Of a stretch of 43,359 bases of DNA, positions 1 to 43,359 are shown in pieces. The position numbers and the translations under genes are program-made. The notes below the pieces were generated by a model. That model made no database searches. It had not been told where the DNA came from and saw only the letters and a program-made list of their open reading frames with translations. The stretch is taken from positions 1 through 43,359 of the IMG/VR virus record IMGVR_UViG_2541047745_000011, one strand, 5' to 3'. Within the stretch, counting starts at the first letter, position 1, and each line of letters opens with the position of its first letter. The DNA is from a virus. Its lineage: Duplodnaviria > Heunggongvirae > Uroviricota > Caudoviricetes.

Positions 1-1158
1 ATGCTCACCGTTAAGCAGATTGAAGCAGCAAAGCCGAAAGAAAAACCATACCGCCTACTCGATGGTAATGGCCTGTACCTTTATGTCCCTGTGTCAGGGA
101 AAAAGGTATGGCAGCTTCGCTACAAGATTGACGGTAAGGAGAAAATCCTGACCGTAGGAAAATATCCGCTAATGACTTTGCAGGAGGCAAGAGATAAAGC
201 ATGGACCGCGAGGAAAGACATCTCGGTTGGCATCGATCCGGTAAAAGCGAAAAAGGCTTCGTCTAACAACAATTCCTTTAGTGCCATTTACAAGGAATGG
301 TACGAGCACAAGAAGCAAGTCTGGTCAGTAGGCTATGCAACTGAACTTGCCAAAATGTTTGATGACGACATTTTACCCATCATCGGCGGTCTTGAGATTC
401 AGGATATTGAGCCGATGCAACTGCTGGAAGTAATCCGCAGATTTGAAGATCGCGGTGCAATGGAGCGAGCCAACAAAGCCCGCAGAAGATGCGGCGAGGT
501 TTTCCGTTACGCTATTGTCACCGGCAGGGCTAAATATAACCCGGCACCTGACCTTGCTGACGCCATGAAGGGGTACCGCAAGAAGAACTTCCCGTTTCTT
601 CCTGCAGACCAGATCCCGGCATTCAATAAAGCACTGGCAACATTTTCAGGAAGTATCGTATCGCTCATTGCCACCAAGGTTTTACGCTACACTGCCCTAA
701 GAACGAAAGAGCTTCGTTCCATGCTATGGAAGAACGTCGATTTTGAAAACAGAATTATCACCATCGACGCCAATGTGATGAAGGGACGCAAAATTCATGT
801 GGTCCCGATGTCAGACCAGGTGGTTGAACTTCTCACTACGCTAAGCTCAATCACCAAACCAGTATCAGAGTTTGTTTTTGCCGGGCGCAACGATAAGAAG
901 AAGTCAATCTGCGAGAACGCGGTACTGCTTGTGATCAAACAAATCGGCTATGAAGGTCTGGAAAGCGGTCACGGATTCAGGCATGAATTCAGCACGATTA
1001 TGAACGAGCACGAATGGCCTGCTGACGCTATTGAAGTGCAACTGGCACATGCCAACGGCGGATCTGTGCGAGGGATTTACAACCATGCTCAGTATCTCGA
1101 TAAGCGCAGAGAAATGATGCAGTGGTGGGCGGACTGGCTTGATGAAAAGGTGGAGTGA
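1..1158 (+). CDS. int: Tyrosine integrase, P4-like family
   Basis: 385-aa ORF; N-terminus MLTVKQIEAAKPKEKPYRLLDGNGLYLYV is typical of P4-type integrases; C-terminal catalytic region with HGFRH motif. ATG at window position 1. Confidence 0.85.
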   Translation: MLTVKQIEAAKPKEKPYRLLDGNGLYLYVPVSGKKVWQLRYKIDGKEKILTVGKYPLMTLQEARDKAWTARKDISVGIDPVKAKKASSNNNSFSAIYKEWYEHKKQVWSVGYATELAKMFDDDILPIIGGLEIQDIEPMQLLEVIRRFEDRGAMERANKARRRCGEVFRYAIVTGRAKYNPAPDLADAMKGYRKKNFPFLPADQIPAFNKALATFSGSIVSLIATKVLRYTALRTKELRSMLWKNVDFENRIITIDANVMKGRKIHVVPMSDQVVELLTTLSSITKPVSEFVFAGRNDKKKSICENAVLLVIKQIGYEGLESGHGFRHEFSTIMNEHEWPADAIEVQLAHANGGSVRGIYNHAQYLDKRREMMQWWADWLDEKVE

Positions 1159-1294: not shown

Positions 1295-3415
1295 TCATTT
1301 CACCACCCAACCAGAATTCCAGCGACCTGATTCTTTGATGTAGAGTCTTCCATTTACGATATCTCGATACTCGCTTCCAGGTGTGGCTATTTGTACTCCT
1401 TCAGGATTTCCAGTGCCAGCAATTATACTGTAACTAACGTCTGTGGCTAAATTCCTAACAATGTTAGCAGGAGGGTAAACGTTATCTGCAACAATAATAT
1501 TTGAGCAACTTGCTGTTACATCTACAAAAAACTCATTGCTTATCGAGTTGTGATAACAGTTGTTACTAATCACACCATTTTTAGCAGATGAATCAATACC
1601 TATAACTGCGTCTCCAGCTACAGATTCAAATGAATTTGATGTCACAGTGAATCCGTGGCATTCGCAGTTAATATGGACAGCTCTTCTTCCGTTCATTGCT
1701 GTATTACCTACAATTGATATGTTTCTACTTAACAAAGTTCCTTTGTATTCGCCATCATCCTCAAATATATAGAATATCGCCTTAGCCGTATCAACTTTAT
1801 TGTTGCTTGCAATCACATTAGCAATGTAATTCCCTCTAAGGAATATCCCATTACATGAATCGACTGTGTTTCCAGTGATGGAAACTCCGTCAACCCATCT
1901 CATATCAAGAATGGAGCCATCACAGGACTCAAAATTATTTCCTGATATCCTCCAGTCTCTGTGAAATATTCTACTACCTTCCAATCCGCTCTCAATAAAT
2001 GTTGGTGTAAGGCATGATATCACAGAATTTCCAGTGCAATTTTTAAATGTATTATGATGTATACACACATCTCTTGATGTTTCCCGAAGAGTTGTGCTTA
2101 CTTTCCTCCCGGTAAATATTATTGCTGGATTAGTGAAATTTATAAATGTGTTTGAACCAATGTCAACATTTTCCCACCTAGAAAAGCCACGAATGCCAGA
2201 ATAAGAATTACCATCAAAAGTACAATGGTGGATTTTTATATCAATAACTGGCTGCGCTCCATCTGTTGAACCGTGATTCCCTACGCCAACAGCCCATGAC
2301 GGTAGAGATTCTGACGGTCCAAAATAACAACCAGACACTTTAATGCTAGCGATATTATCATTGCTGGACAATGGTGTTTCAATCTGAATAGCATCTGAAA
2401 AACCTCTGTTACCTGCCCAATCCATAAACCCCATAAAACGGCAGTTTTCAATATTAACATTTCTCACGCGAGACAAGTCTATAGCATGCGCCCCTGAAAC
2501 ATTAAGGAATGTGCAATCCCGAAATATAATCCCATTAGTAAAAACAAATTCAAATATACTGGCTTGGTTTTTGTATATATTGCCATTGTTATTAAAAACA
2601 CCACCAAATACAGATATATTATTACCACATTCGACTTCAGATGTGTATATGCAAGCAAATGTATTTACACCTGTGTCTGAATTATCAAAAGCACGAATAA
2701 TAGTTGCACCTCGTAGATGTAAACTTGTGTTTGAGTATATCATTATTTTTTTTGTTATTTTTATAAGCCATTCACTACGAAAGGTTAAATTCAAACATCC
2801 GTTTATCTTTGCGATATTTAAAGCATTCTGTAAGGCATCGCTATCGTCGCTTACACCATCACCTGTAACCCCAAACCATGACGGTGAAACCTCATTCCCG
2901 TAAACCCTCTTCCACCTTCTACCGTTAAAACCTACAAGAATTGTTCCGTCATTATCTTCTGATGTCGTATCTGTTGGGTCAGCATAGAACACCCCATCAC
3001 CGCCATCGAACAAATTATTTCTTCCATAACAGATTATTTTGTCATTTGTGCCATTATATGAACGTATGTCTGTATAATTACCACCTCCTAAATACGATAC
3101 CCCGTCAATCTGATTTAGTTTCTGCTGAAACATGTCTGGATCATACTTCAGCACATTAGGAAAATAGAATTGCTGCGCTCCATACGCATCATATACAGCC
3201 ATAGAATGGCCTTGCACGGTTACGAATTTGGCAATCTGTCCGTTATATACCGGATATCCAGCAGCGTTAATGATGATTGGTTGCGAAACAGGGATGTGAG
3301 AACCGTCTTCGTTCTCCACATAAACCTGAATCTGGTTTTCAGGATTTACCGGGTCAGTGTCAATTTTACCGATATAAATTTTGCCATTAGCTACGGCTTT
3401 AAAAGAACGCGCCAT
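1295..3415 (-). CDS. Tailspike protein body (706 codons), P22/Sf6-type head-binding N-domain plus beta-helix receptor-binding domain; native first 18 codons separated by IS1
   Basis: N-terminus [40 protein letters not shown] matches residues ~19-60 of P22 gp9 / Sf6 tailspike; remainder is Asn/Ser/Thr-rich, beta-helix-like. Upstream of the ATG is the IS1 end, not a native RBS. Confidence 0.85.
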
Positions 3416-3432
3416 AGGGTAATGACTCCAAC

Positions 3433-3936
3433 TTATTGATAGTGTTTTATGTTCAGATAATGCCCGATGACTTTGTCATGCAGCTCCACCGATTTTGAGA
3501 ACGACAGCGACTTCCGTCCCAGCCGTGCCAGGTGCTGCCTCAGATTCAGGTTATGCCGCTCAATTCGCTGCGTATATCGCTTGCTGATTACGTGCAGCTT
3601 TCCCTTCAGGCGGGATTCATACAGCGGCCAGCCATCCGTCATCCATATCACCACGTCAAAGGGTGACAGCAGGCTCATAAGACGCCCCAGCGTCGCCATA
3701 GTGCGTTCACCGAATACGTGCGCAACAACCGTCTTCCGGAGCCTGTCATACGCGTAAAACAGCCAGCGCTGGCGCGATTTAGCCCCGACGTATCCCCACT
3801 GTTCGTCCATTTCCGCGCAGACGATGACGTCACTGCCCGGCTGTATGCGCGAGGTTACCGACTGCGGCCTGAGTTTTTTAAATGGCGGAAAATCGTGTTG
3901 AGGCCAACGCCCATAATGCGGGCGGTTGCCCGGCAT
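3433..3936 (-). CDS. insB: IS1 transposase InsB reading frame
   Basis: Translation [25 protein letters not shown]...[12 protein letters not shown] matches IS1 InsB. Confidence 0.9.
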
Positions 3937-4130
3937 CCAACGCCATTCATGGCCATATCAATGATTTTCTGGTGCGTACCGGGTTGAGAAGCGGTGTAAG
4001 TGAACTGCAGTTGCCATGTTTTACGGCAGTGAGAGCAGAGATAGCGCTGATGTCCGGCGGTGCTTTTGCCGTTACGCACCACCCCGTCAGTAGCTGAACA
4101 GGAGGGACAGCTGATAGAAACAGAAGCCAC
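3855..4130 (-). CDS. insA: IS1 InsA
   Basis: Translation [42 protein letters not shown]... matches IS1 InsA. Confidence 0.9.
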
Positions 4131-4185
4131 TGGAGCACCTCAAAAACATCATCATACACTAAATCAGTAAGTTGGCAGCATCACC

Positions 4186-4245
4186 CGCCATAGTGAAAAG
4201 TTGCGAAGGCATACTCACTACAACATTGGCTGTAATGTCTGTCAT
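4186..4245 (-). pseudogene. Tailspike 5' fragment (native codons 1-20) cut off by IS1
   Basis: Minus-strand translation from ATG at 4245: MTDITANVVVSMPSQLFTMA, then runs into IS1 and stops after 8 IS-encoded codons; matches P22 gp9 N-terminus MTDITANVVVSNPRPIFTE. In frame with the 1295-3415 body once IS1 and one duplication copy are removed. Confidence 0.85.
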
Positions 4246-4313
4246 TTAATTTGCTCCAGATACAAGGAATCGCCGCAGCATTGCCACAGTGATGCATTAT
4301 TAATCAAACAAAG

Positions 4314-4328
4314 AGACCACTGTGGTCT
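4314..4328. promoter_or_regulatory. Perfect 15-bp palindrome AGACCAC-T-GTGGTCT, candidate Mnt operator overlapping divergent promoters
   Basis: Symmetric site midway between the mnt start (4392, +) and the native tailspike start (4245, -); P22 Mnt binds a palindromic operator in the equivalent position. Confidence 0.4.
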
Positions 4329-4391
4329 TATTGAGGATGCAACCAGCAGATAATAAGATGCCGATCCACTCACAAAAGCGAGGCATCAAGA

Positions 4392-4643
4392 ATGGGAAGA
4401 GATGACCCGCAATTTAATCTGCGGCTACCTTACGAATTAAAGGAAAAACTAAAACAGCGAGCCAAATCCAATGGCCGCTCTCTTAATTCAGAATTAGTTC
4501 AGATAGTGACTGATGCTGTATCAAAGCCATCCAAAATTTCAGGCTATCGAGACGATGCGGAACGCATCGCTGATGAGCAGTCCGAACTTGTTAAGAAGAT
4601 GGTGTTTGATACGCTGAAGGATTTGTACAAAAAACCCACCTGA
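4392..4643 (+). CDS. mnt: Mnt repressor (ribbon-helix-helix, Arc/Mnt family)
   Basis: 83 aa, MGRDDPQFNLRLPYELKEKLKQRAKSNGRSLNSELVQIV...ELVKKMVFDTLKDLYKK closely matches P22 Mnt; GAGG RBS upstream. Confidence 0.9.
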   Translation: MGRDDPQFNLRLPYELKEKLKQRAKSNGRSLNSELVQIVTDAVSKPSKISGYRDDAERIADEQSELVKKMVFDTLKDLYKKPT

Positions 4644-4660
4644 TGGTGGGTTCCATTTAT
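4635..4660. terminator. Bidirectional rho-independent terminator between convergent mnt and lipoprotein genes
   Basis: CCCACC-tgat-GGTGGG hairpin with A-run on one side and T-rich tract on the other; overlaps the mnt stop codon. Confidence 0.5.
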
Positions 4661-5079
4661 TAGTCGTGCTTTGTTGACGGTATAAGGGATGCATTTGCCT
4701 CTTTAGGCTTCAAGGTATACATCCCACCATTAAATGGATCTACAGCAAGCCAACCAATTAACCCACCAAACACAAGGTTTCCACCAATATACCAACCATT
4801 AGCATTGGCTTTGATTGGCAGGGTAACTGGTTCGTACCCATCCTTCTCCATAGTGATCTGGTAGCTCTTTTTGCCAAAATAACTACCATCTGACTTGGCA
4901 AGAGTTACTCCTTGCGGGGTCTTACCTTGCGCAACAATCACGCCTGATTCGTCTTTTACCTTAAAGCTCGCACCGGAAGGATTGCTGTTCACTTGCACAA
5001 GCTGTGTTTCGTCACCAACAATAGTTGCGCACCCAGATAACAATATAGCGCCAGCAACGACGCCGATAATCCTCTTCAT
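4660..5079 (-). CDS. Lipoprotein of unknown function (accessory gene in sieA-equivalent locus)
   Basis: 139 aa; signal peptide with lipobox LLSGC; Gly-rich C-terminal region; sits where P22 carries sieA, between gene 16 and mnt. Confidence 0.6.
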   Translation of the reverse strand: MKRIIGVVAGAILLSGCATIVGDETQLVQVNSNPSGASFKVKDESGVIVAQGKTPQGVTLAKSDGSYFGKKSYQITMEKDGYEPVTLPIKANANGWYIGGNLVFGGLIGWLAVDPFNGGMYTLKPKEANASLIPSTKHD

Positions 5080-5213
5080 ATTACTTTCCGTTTTGTTAGA
5101 ATCAGAAAGATCTTAATAATAAAAAGTATTTTCGTGAAGATATTGTCGATTGAGTTAATAACTCATTTACACCCAACAGTGCCATGATGGCAAAGATAAG
5201 GAGAGTTAATCAT

Positions 5214-5699
5214 ATGAAAAAATCACTGTTAATTATCCCGCTTCTGCTGGCAGGGTGTGCAAAGGTTAGCGACTATCAGGCAAGTTGCGAACAACGCTAT
5301 CCAAAGCTTAGCGATATGGCTAATTGCCTTGATGCTAGCGTGAAGAGCGACTCACGCATGGCATCAGCACCAACACCTAAGTTATATGTCCTTGCTGCGA
5401 AGATGCTCGGGCAAGGTGTCGATGATGGCAAGATAAGTGACGCGCAGGCAAGACTTGAGCTTCAGAATCTTTATGTTCAATTACAAAGCCAAGAACAAGC
5501 CCAACAAATAGCACAAAGCCAAGCATTCCAGCAGGCTTTATTGAATTATCAGGCTGTAAACACAATGCAAGCTATCGAGCAAAAAGCGCGCCAGCCTGTT
5601 ATAACTCAACCTTACCCAACACGCGTTGACACTTACACAAACTGCAATTCAGGGTTTGGAAATACAGTCACATGCAACAGTAGCAGTAACATCAGATAA
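5214..5699 (+). CDS. Lipoprotein of unknown function, Gln-rich (divergent from 4660-5079)
   Basis: Start chosen at ATG 5214 (MKKSLLIIPLLLAGCAK, lipobox LAGC) with AAGGAGAG RBS at 5198-5205; track ORF begins at 5184. Confidence 0.6.
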   Translation: MKKSLLIIPLLLAGCAKVSDYQASCEQRYPKLSDMANCLDASVKSDSRMASAPTPKLYVLAAKMLGQGVDDGKISDAQARLELQNLYVQLQSQEQAQQIAQSQAFQQALLNYQAVNTMQAIEQKARQPVITQPYPTRVDTYTNCNSGFGNTVTCNSSSNIR

Positions 5700-41348: not shown

Positions 41349-41364
41349 TTGCAGGTTCGATTCC
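41349..41364 (+). other. tRNA T-arm-like fragment TTGCAGGTTCGATTCC (5' part of a tRNA 3' half)
   Basis: 16-nt match to a canonical tRNA T-stem/loop, consistent with tRNA-Arg argW from memory; no 5' tRNA body upstream. Confidence 0.5.
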
Positions 41365-41383
41365 CTATTCGGAGATAGCACTC

Positions 41384-41584
41384 ATGCAACACGAACTACA
41401 ACCTGATTCACTGGTTGATTTGAAATTCATCATGGCCGATACTGGCTTCGGTAAAACCTTCATCTACGACCGGATTAAGTCCGGCGACCTGCCAAAAGCC
41501 AAAGTTATCCACGGGCGAGCAAGATGGTTATATCGTGACCATTGTGAATTCAAAAATAAGCTCTTAAGCCGCGCCAATGGGTAA
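41384..41584 (+). CDS. alpA: AlpA-family excisionase-like regulator
   Basis: 66 aa, LVDLKFIMADTGFGKTFIYDRIKSGDLPKAKVIHGRARWLYRDHCEF, typical AlpA/Xis HTH; GGAGATA RBS. Confidence 0.8.
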   Translation: MQHELQPDSLVDLKFIMADTGFGKTFIYDRIKSGDLPKAKVIHGRARWLYRDHCEFKNKLLSRANG

Positions 41585-41657
41585 AATAGCGGGTAAAATA
41601 TTTTTCACATCTAAAAAACACCATTCCAATCAATCCCCTGCCGCGTCAAGTAGATGT

Positions 41658-41672
41658 CTGCAGGGGACACCA
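41658..41672 (+). other. tRNA 3'-terminal fragment CTGCAGGGGACACCA, candidate attR core
   Basis: Sequence of a tRNA acceptor 3' strand plus ACCA, consistent with argW 3' end from memory; flanked by GGGTAAAATA direct repeats at 41579-41600 on the phage side. Confidence 0.55.
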
Positions 41673-42111
41673 GATACCCTTCAAACGATATCTACCTTCA
41701 CCCCGTAAAAGATAAGTTTGGCAGCACATTTGCCCTATCTACTCATTTTTCCTGCAACAGGTTGAAATCTCAACACGGTCAGAAAACGCTGATGACTAAA
41801 CAGCCCTGGGCTGGGCGATGTAACCATCACACACAATCCTGATCGCGAAATATGGCGTGACTTGATACTTCACTCCACAATGCTTTCCTTGATGAATTCG
41901 CAGGCCCGTGATACACGGGACAGGTCGCTGAATTACGACAATGCCCTGGAAATCAGCGAGCCGTGTATCCGGAGTACATTTGAGCGACTGTACCAGAACA
42001 TGAATGAGGCGTTTGGATTAGGCGATTATTAGCAGGGCTAAGCATTTTGGTATTATTATTTTCCGGTTGAGGGATATAGAGCTATCGACAACAACCGGAA
42101 AAAGTTTACGT

Positions 42112-43359
42112 TTATATTGCTGAAGGTACTGGCGTTTCCATCACTATTTGCTCACGTTTTTTACTCAGGAAGAAAATGCCAAATAGCAACATCAGGCAGA
42201 CAATACCCGAAATTGCGAAAAAAACCGTCTGGTAGCCTGCGTGGTCAAAGAGTATCCCAGTCGGCGTTGAAAGCAGCACAATCCCCAACGAACTGGCAAT
42301 TTGAAAACCAATCAGAAAGATCGTCGACGACAGGCGCTTATCAAAATTTGCCACGCTGTATTTGAAGACGGATATGACACAAAGTGGAACCTCAATGGCA
42401 TGTAACAGCTTCACTAATGAAATAATCCAGGGGTTAACGAATAGCGCGCAGGAAAGGATACGCAACGCCATAATCACAACACCGATAAGTAATGCATTTT
42501 TTGGCCCTACCCGATTCACAAAGAAAGGAATAATCGCCATGCACAGCGCTTCGAGTACCACCTGGAATGAGTTGAGATAACCATACAGGCGCGTTCCTAC
42601 ATCGTGGGATTCGAATAAACCTGCATAAAAGACAGGAAAGAGTTGTTGATCAAAAATGTTATAGAAAGACCACGTCCCCACAATAAATATGACGAAAACC
42701 CAGAAGTTTCGATCCTTGAAAACTGCGATAAAATCCTCTTTTTTTACCCCTCCCACATCCGCCGCTACGCACTGGTGTTCCTGCTCTTTAAAACGCATGT
42801 TGATCATCATAAATACAGCGCCAAATAGAGAGACCAACCAGAAGTTGATATGGGGACTGATACTAAAAAATATGCCAGCAAAGAATGCGCCAATAGCATA
42901 GCCAAAAGATCCCCAGGCGCGCGCTGTTCCATATTCGAAATGAAAATTTCGCGCCATTTTTTCGGTGAAGCTGTCAAGCAAACCGCATCCCGCCAGATAC
43001 CCCAGACCAAAAAAGAGCGCCCCCAGAATTAAACCTACAGAAAAATTGCTTTGCAGTAACGGTTCATAAACGTAAATCATAAACGGTCCGGTCAAGACCA
43101 AGATGAAACTCATACACCAGATGAGCGGTTTCTTCAGACCGAGTTTATCCTGAACGATGCCGTAGAACATCATAAATAGAATGCTGGTAAACTGGTTGAC
43201 CGAATAAAGTGTACCTAATTCCGTCCCTGTCAACCCTAGATGTCCTTTCAGCCAAATAGCGTATAATGACCACCACAGCGACCAGGAAATAAAAAAGAGA
43301 AATGAGTAACTGGATGCAAAACGATAGTACGCATTTCTGAATGGAATATTCAGTGCCAT
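42112..43359 (-). CDS. cscB: Sucrose:H+ symporter CscB (LacY-family MFS permease), host chromosomal gene
   Basis: 415 aa, MALNIPFRNAYYRFASSYSFLFFISWSLWWSLYAIWLKG..., 12 predicted TM helices; ATG at window end. Confidence 0.8.
   Translation of the reverse strand: MALNIPFRNAYYRFASSYSFLFFISWSLWWSLYAIWLKGHLGLTGTELGTLYSVNQFTSILFMMFYGIVQDKLGLKKPLIWCMSFILVLTGPFMIYVYEPLLQSNFSVGLILGALFFGLGYLAGCGLLDSFTEKMARNFHFEYGTARAWGSFGYAIGAFFAGIFFSISPHINFWLVSLFGAVFMMINMRFKEQEHQCVAADVGGVKKEDFIAVFKDRNFWVFVIFIVGTWSFYNIFDQQLFPVFYAGLFESHDVGTRLYGYLNSFQVVLEALCMAIIPFFVNRVGPKNALLIGVVIMALRILSCALFVNPWIISLVKLLHAIEVPLCVISVFKYSVANFDKRLSSTIFLIGFQIASSLGIVLLSTPTGILFDHAGYQTVFFAISGIVCLMLLFGIFFLSKKREQIVMETPVPSAI

Follow-up and report, generated by a model that had tools for sequence, protein, structure and literature searches.

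The tailspike gene of the prophage in the window (the whole 43,359-nt stretch of DNA that was analysed) is interrupted close to its 5′ end by an insertion sequence, and the open reading frame that remains downstream of the insertion is still 706 codons long. The question raised by this locus is whether its two junctions record a simple transposition that deprived the phage of its tailspike, or whether they reflect a larger rearrangement, an error of assembly, or a fusion that is of some use to the host. The reading that we prefer, to which we assign a probability of roughly 0.93, is a single simple transposition of IS1 into the tailspike gene of a P22/Sf6-like prophage at argW, with duplication of an 8-bp target; the loss of function that would follow is the part of this reading that we infer.

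IS1 and its target within the tailspike gene

The inserted element occupies positions 3418..4185 on the minus strand, which is also the strand and direction of the tailspike gene, and is a complete IS1 of 768 bp, as the initial annotation had proposed. Its terminal inverted repeats were located by an exact 23-bp search, IRR at 3418-3440 (plus strand) and IRL at 4163-4185 (as the reverse complement). Each of these exact ends occurs a single time in the window, which gives 768 bp from end to end, and their sequences (GGTGATGCTGCCAACTTACTGAT / GGTAATGACTCCAACTTATTGAT) agree with the family norm of imperfect repeats of ~23 bp bounding an element of ~768 bp. The element carries insA (91 aa; 3855..4130, minus strand; found in the ORF list, with matches to PF03811 and PF12759) and the insB' frame with its DDE transposase domain (3433..3936, minus strand; PF03400, E=2e-78). 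These are joined by a -1 frameshift motif of the A6C type, TTAAAAAAC, at 3873-3881 on the minus strand (IS1 position 305), and the -1 frame beyond this motif is open as far as the end of the element. A copy annotated as IS1B in E. coli 1070/13 is identical to the window element at 766 of 768 positions, and the IS1 of phage P1 shares 99.5% identity with it. Judging from its sequence, with both ORFs and both ends intact, this copy appears functional.

A perfect direct repeat of 8 bp, CGCCATAG, immediately adjoins IS1 at both ends. The gene-proximal (5′) copy lies at 4186..4193 (CGCCATAG on the plus strand, CTATGGCG on the minus strand), and the copy on the 3′ side at 3410..3417, where it holds the ATG of native Met19 (3413-3415). 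The initial annotation had described the same intact duplication, and its feature start of 3409 needs a trivial correction to 3410. A duplication of 9 bp was considered and rejected, as the bases next outward of CGCCATAG are unlike on the two sides. Duplications made by IS1 are as a norm 8 or 9 bp long (PMC12428005), so that the length found here is normal.

The insertion point falls after tailspike codon 20 (gene nucleotides 60/61), a similarly trivial correction to the earlier wording "at codon 20"; the native start given earlier (4245) holds. The site is mildly AT-rich (0.54-0.61, vs. 0.53 for the window). It has been proposed that IS1 hot spots depend on likeness of the target to the ends of IS1; such likeness too was considered and rejected here: the best local alignment of the 80-bp target with IRL or IRR scored 12, and among 1,063 control windows from the same prophage the mean score was 13.9, with 92% of controls scoring at least as high as the target.

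Read from its native start (ATG ACA GAC ATT at 4245, minus strand), the tailspike gene passes from codon 20 directly into the IRL of IS1 (GGTGATGCTGCCAACTTACTGAT) and is reduced to a 5′ stub of 28 aa (4159..4245, minus strand) made up of 20 native codons (MTDITANVVVSMPSQLFTMA), the residues GDAANLLI contributed by the IRL, and a stop. What remains of the gene is the 706-codon ORF (1295..3415, minus strand), which covers native residues 19-724 and is present both in the ORF list and as a gene call in the source assembly. It begins at native Met19, inside the 3410-3417 copy of the duplication, just as had been read from the sequence before. A full-length tailspike of 724 aa can no longer be encoded, and on this point the earlier claim holds, given that the native start now leads only to the stub.

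The history of the site can be reversed in silico. Removal of 3418-4193, that is, of IS1 together with one copy of the repeat, is the check that the initial annotation had suggested, and it yields one continuous ORF of 724 codons; removal of IS1 alone, with both repeat copies left in place, leaves the frame broken. Aligned with the intact 2175-nt tailspike genes of E. coli MS15236 and E3, the restored gene needs no gaps and is identical to them at 2153 and 2154 of 2175 nt, respectively (99%), and at 716 of 724 aa. MS15236 has an empty site (TTCACTATGGCGCGTTC) that equals the reconstruction exactly, and that of E3 has one synonymous base change within the 8-bp target (GCT for GCG). Near-identity among the window, MS15236, and E3 also extends over the final ~35 nt 5′ of the ATG, a stretch that contains the GGAG ribosome-binding site. 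The initial annotation had named two observations that would speak against it, terminal repeats that do not match those of IS1 and a junction that does not restore the frame; instead, the inverted repeats are exact and the frame is continuous. A precise excision event between the two 8-bp repeats, rare as it would be, might in principle restore the gene.

The prophage and its second insertion sequence

The element that carries this insertion is a P22/Sf6-like (Lederbergvirus-type) prophage of E. coli, integrated at argW in GCA_000457405.1. Its attL (argW) end is marked by an IntS-type integrase (1..1158, plus strand), and in the source contig the tRNA-Arg (argW) gene shortly precedes position 1 of the window. 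A search for attR that used the full 3′ end of the tRNA gave no match; the attR core was then found by exact-word comparison at 41349..41364 (plus strand), where 16 bp of the argW 3′ segment (TTGCAGGTTCGATTCC) are repeated, and a cscB-like permease is encoded beyond it (42112-43359). The deposited phage closest to this prophage is vB_EcoP-720R6, with 73% coverage and 96.4% identity over 4200-29000.

Apart from the tailspike gene, the virion module is intact, with full-length Pfam matches for a P22 portal, coat, gp4 adaptor, and gp10 tail hub, as well as for an Sf6-type needle knob and the large terminase. Injection genes of the gp7/gp20/gp16 type are present upstream of the tailspike, along with a mnt-like repressor gene (4392..4643, plus strand; PF03869 and PF11423) that is divergent from it. 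The late operon ends with the tailspike gene, which is convergent with int (136 bp separate their ORFs), and IS1 would therefore exert no polar effect on other genes.

The prophage also contains IS100, a member of the IS21 family with istA and istB (23483..25436, plus strand; 1954 bp, TG...CA ends; PF00665 and PF01695). It is flanked by a 5-bp duplication, GATGC, at 23478-23482 and 25437-25441, and its products are an IstA of 340 aa (HTH and rve) and an IstB of 260 aa (IstB ATPase); the same element is annotated in MS15236, at 100% identity over 1498 bp. The gene that it splits is a Q/gene-23-like late antiterminator (23208..25685, minus strand), broken after codon ~83 into a 5′ part (25442-25685) and a 3′ part (23208-23482). 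When restored, the antiterminator ORF has 172 aa and matches Phage_antitermQ (PF06530, E=1e-25). Expression of the late operon upon induction appears unlikely from this arrangement. Because the Q-like late activator is split by IS100, induction would probably give no particles at all, rather than tailless ones, unless Q were supplied in trans. The prophage would then have been disabled independently by IS100, and the IS1 event would represent one step of ordinary prophage decay.

A possible truncated product and related junctions

All 706 codons of the remaining ORF are still open, as would be expected if the insertion were recent or if the ORF had kept some use. Given a transcript, an N-truncated product without residues 1-18, started from the IS1 side, is plausible on the basis of several features near its start. 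One is a GGAG inside the IRR (3426..3429, minus strand; identified by reading the sequence), located 10 nt 5′ of the Met19 ATG and a possible Shine-Dalgarno site. The native tailspike site is likewise a bare GGAG (4254-4257, 8 nt 5′ of the ATG at 4245), and predicted local RNA structure is weak at the native start and at the Met19 start alike. The insB stop codon lies 17 nt 5′ of the Met19 ATG. Low-level translation of the ORF could accordingly be pictured in two ways, via the IS1-borne GGAG or by re-initiation after the insB stop, and the transcript might come from IS1's own weak promoter or from read-through across IS1 from upstream. A promoter scan picked up IS1's own promoter, in the IRL, at 4178-4151. 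We rejected a hybrid outward promoter at the other end of IS1 on two grounds: the TTGGAG of the IRR lacks a satisfactory -10 at a spacing of 16-18 bp, and a transcript from it would begin downstream of the Met19 ATG; the promoter scan returned no such promoter.

Expression of P22 gene 9 needs antitermination by gp23 at a terminator that shortly precedes the gene. In the window, a hairpin resembling a terminator, with a T-run after it, was found 5′ of the native tailspike start (4314..4328, minus strand; consensus scan only). It sits in the place equivalent to that of the P22 gene 9 terminator, and may have a comparable role.

Whether a truncated product could serve in the virion depends on the part that is missing. 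The restored protein matches the head-binding domain PF09008 over profile positions 1-112 of 113 (E=4e-66), and its residues 1-118 align to the Sf6 tailspike gp14 (7sg7) at E=3e-65. In the Sf6 virion, tailspike residues 4-16 are ordered and take a different conformation in each of the three protomers, residues 17-106 superimpose, and the asymmetry of residues 4-16 lets the tailspike trimer dock on the hexameric tail hub (PMC9728967). The 706-aa product begins at residue 19, with most of the head-binding domain kept and the entire N-terminal arm (residues 4-16) absent. Because this arm, the basis of the docking asymmetry in Sf6, is missing, the truncated tailspike would probably attach to the hub poorly or not at all.

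The body of the protein gave fainter signals. The beta-helix profile PF13229 scored 21.5 bits, under its cutoff of 25.9 bits; PF27114 (Phage_tail_beta) is precomputed on the tailspike gene of the source assembly; and matches of the body to beta-helix proteins in the PDB were weak. As a separate observation, the receptor-binding part has ≤28% identity to anything among 50,697 phage records, and is thus a domain without a close relative in deposited phages.

Only two records contain the exact 706-aa product, scaffold KE699702.1 of GCA_000457405.1 and the Logan assembly of SRR770080. The exact junction is absent from all 5,426 complete E. coli genomes, of which just two contain this tailspike type, both as intact copies. 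A literature search combining IS1, tailspikes, and prophages returned no paper that describes an insertion like this one. Related junctions were identified in two other lineages: co-oriented IS1 abuts the 5′ end of a P22-type tailspike gene at nt 57 in E. coli A23, and that of the tailspike gene in MLI104K1/K2 at about nt 38, in both cases beside intS. In A23 and MLI104K1 everything upstream has been deleted into dsdC/dsdX and there is no target duplication. A23 and MLI104K1/K2 look like a next stage of decay, brought about by IS1-mediated adjacent deletion. The closeness of the three junctions, with those of A23 and MLI104K1/K2 falling within about 20 nt of the insertion point in the window, is suggestive. 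We do not claim a hot spot, because the query could detect only co-directional junctions in the 5′ region of the tailspike gene (n = 3), and because likeness of the target to the ends of IS1 was not above chance.

These junctions also bear on the least improbable alternative, in which the insertion has adaptively re-wired the gene, so that the IS1 promoter and the GGAG together drive, independently of the antiterminator, a free, soluble, non-virion tailspike that is useful to the host. IS1 does share the direction of the gene and follows the terminator-like hairpin, but its promoter is weak and autorepressed. The GGAG stands 10 nt before an in-frame native ATG, and the ORF that follows is fully open, an openness that a recent insertion predicts equally well. 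The tailspike, moreover, has no export signal and, without lysis, cannot reach surface polysaccharide. Prophage remnants in two further genomes do keep equally oriented IS1-tailspike junctions in which the tailspike ORF is open; all three junctions, however, came from a query able to detect only this orientation and region, and they represent only 3 lineages among about 1,590 genomes with the head-binding domain. We therefore regard re-wiring as highly improbable, and it would be similarly surprising if the junctions in the three E. coli lineages had been retained because a free tailspike lacking residues 1-18 helps the host. Were it true, the tailspike might serve as a polysaccharide-binding or -cleaving factor released on lysis, or as a decoy against related phages.

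Slightly less probable still is that the flanks were brought together by an IS1-mediated rearrangement, be it a deletion, an inversion, or recombination between IS1 copies. Such events have occurred at this very locus in A23 and MLI104K1, where the deletion runs into dsdC/dsdX. In the window, however, the flanks are contiguous tailspike sequence with a matching 8-bp duplication, the signature of simple insertion, which IS-mediated deletion or inter-IS recombination would lose, and the upstream region of mnt and the injection genes is syntenic with related phages. An assembly artefact, with a multi-copy IS1 misplaced in an intact tailspike gene, is just as improbable: IS1 is highly repeated in E. 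coli (median ~10 places per genome) and short-read assemblies do break at it, but a misjoin would not yield an exact 8-bp duplication around a full-length element, each flank is one half of a single gene, and in the separate short-read assembly of SRR770080 the Logan contig ends inside the right end of IS1 (IRR) with the identical right junction, which speaks against misassembly.

Simple transposition thus remains the preferred reading, and its significance should be put modestly. Inactivation of a prophage gene by an insertion sequence is a textbook event; here a known element has acted in its known way, and the insertion itself is ordinary and brings no new biology. The locus does record one step of IS-driven prophage decay at argW, for which related genomes show the next step. 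It is also a trap for annotation, in that the 706-codon remainder, with its head-binding domain, passes with gene callers for an ordinary tailspike. With the remainder called as normal, predictors of completeness or host range would score this prophage as intact despite two inactivating insertion sequences.

Comparison with known insertions and tailspikes

With regard to the element itself, the IS1A/IS1B-type copies of E. coli K-12 and the IS1 of P1 share with the window copy their length, inverted repeats, insA/insB', A6C frameshift, and 8-bp duplication. At 99.5-99.7% nucleotide identity to annotated copies, the window IS1 shows nothing different, and its sole particular feature is the site of insertion. 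The remnants at argW in A23 and MLI104K1 resemble the window in that the first ~20 codons of the tailspike gene border on an IS1 of like orientation. They differ in that the rest of the prophage has been deleted, whereas the window has a simple insertion in a full-length prophage.

The tailspikes of Sf6 (gp14), P22 (gp9), and HK620 share the PF09008 head-binding domain with that of the window, which is nearly identical to Sf6 over residues 1-118. They also share its genomic position at the end of the late genes, where the injection genes and mnt precede it and int follows. In contrast, their receptor-binding parts bear no relation to that of the window tailspike (aa 113-724), whose gene is interrupted. 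Sf6 offers a further parallel, as it likewise has a P22-like temperate genome with a host insertion sequence, IS911, in the nin region (PMC3630932). That region is dispensable and the phage is viable, whereas the insertion sequences of the window strike an essential virion gene and the activator of the late genes.

A second insertion sequence, and IS1 junctions elsewhere

The prophage that carries IS1 in its tailspike gene has a second, independent inactivating insertion, an IS100 element (IS21 family; 1954 bp) at window positions 23483-25436, flanked by a 5-bp duplication, GATGC. It cuts the Q/gene-23-like late antiterminator gene (PF06530; 23208-25685 including the insertion) after approximately codon 83.

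P22-type tailspike genes abutted by IS1 were also identified in E. coli A23 (L003 4002-4880), MLI104K1 (L004 4004-4880), and MLI104K2 (L010), using a query able to detect only co-directional junctions within the tailspike 5' region; in all three the orientation of IS1 is the same as in the window. The junctions at these loci lie at nt 57 (A23) and approximately nt 38 (MLI104K1 and MLI104K2) of the tailspike gene and have no target duplication, the remaining prophage is deleted into dsdC/dsdX, and the tailspike CDS annotated by PGAP runs on into IS1. The tailspike 5' end may be a hot spot for IS1, a possibility that comes from a search whose ascertainment was biased toward such junctions.

The tailspike receptor-binding part

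The tailspike's receptor-binding portion (residues ~113-724; window 1295-3080) has no relative above ~28% identity in a set of 50,697 deposited phage genomes, in which the tailspikes of Vectrevirus match it best. Across 5,426 complete genomes of E. coli, only two, MS15236 and E3, have an intact copy of the entire gene. In MS15236 (L007 1-5123) the intact homologue lies within a prophage remnant adjoining torT, with an IS100 ~1.5 kb upstream that is identical in sequence to the window IS100.

Chromosomal location and gene content

In the interval 41349-43359, a sucrose permease gene resembling cscB comes after the 16-bp attR core, which places the prophage between argW and the csc locus. A 170-aa ORF with HNH_3 and AP2 domains (22501-23013, minus strand), which has the Q-like gene on one side and the lysis genes on the other, resembles a homing endonuclease. 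The immI-like region (4246-4391 and 4660-5699) contains mnt and lacks both arc and ant; between mnt and the gp16-type gene are two lipoprotein-like ORFs without a Pfam match (4660-5079, minus strand; 5184-5699, plus strand).

The integrase and tailspike stop codons are just 136 bp apart (1159-1294). This interval has no O-antigen-modification gene, in contrast to Sf6, which carries oac; the E. coli remnants have acyltransferase, gtr, or EpsG genes there.
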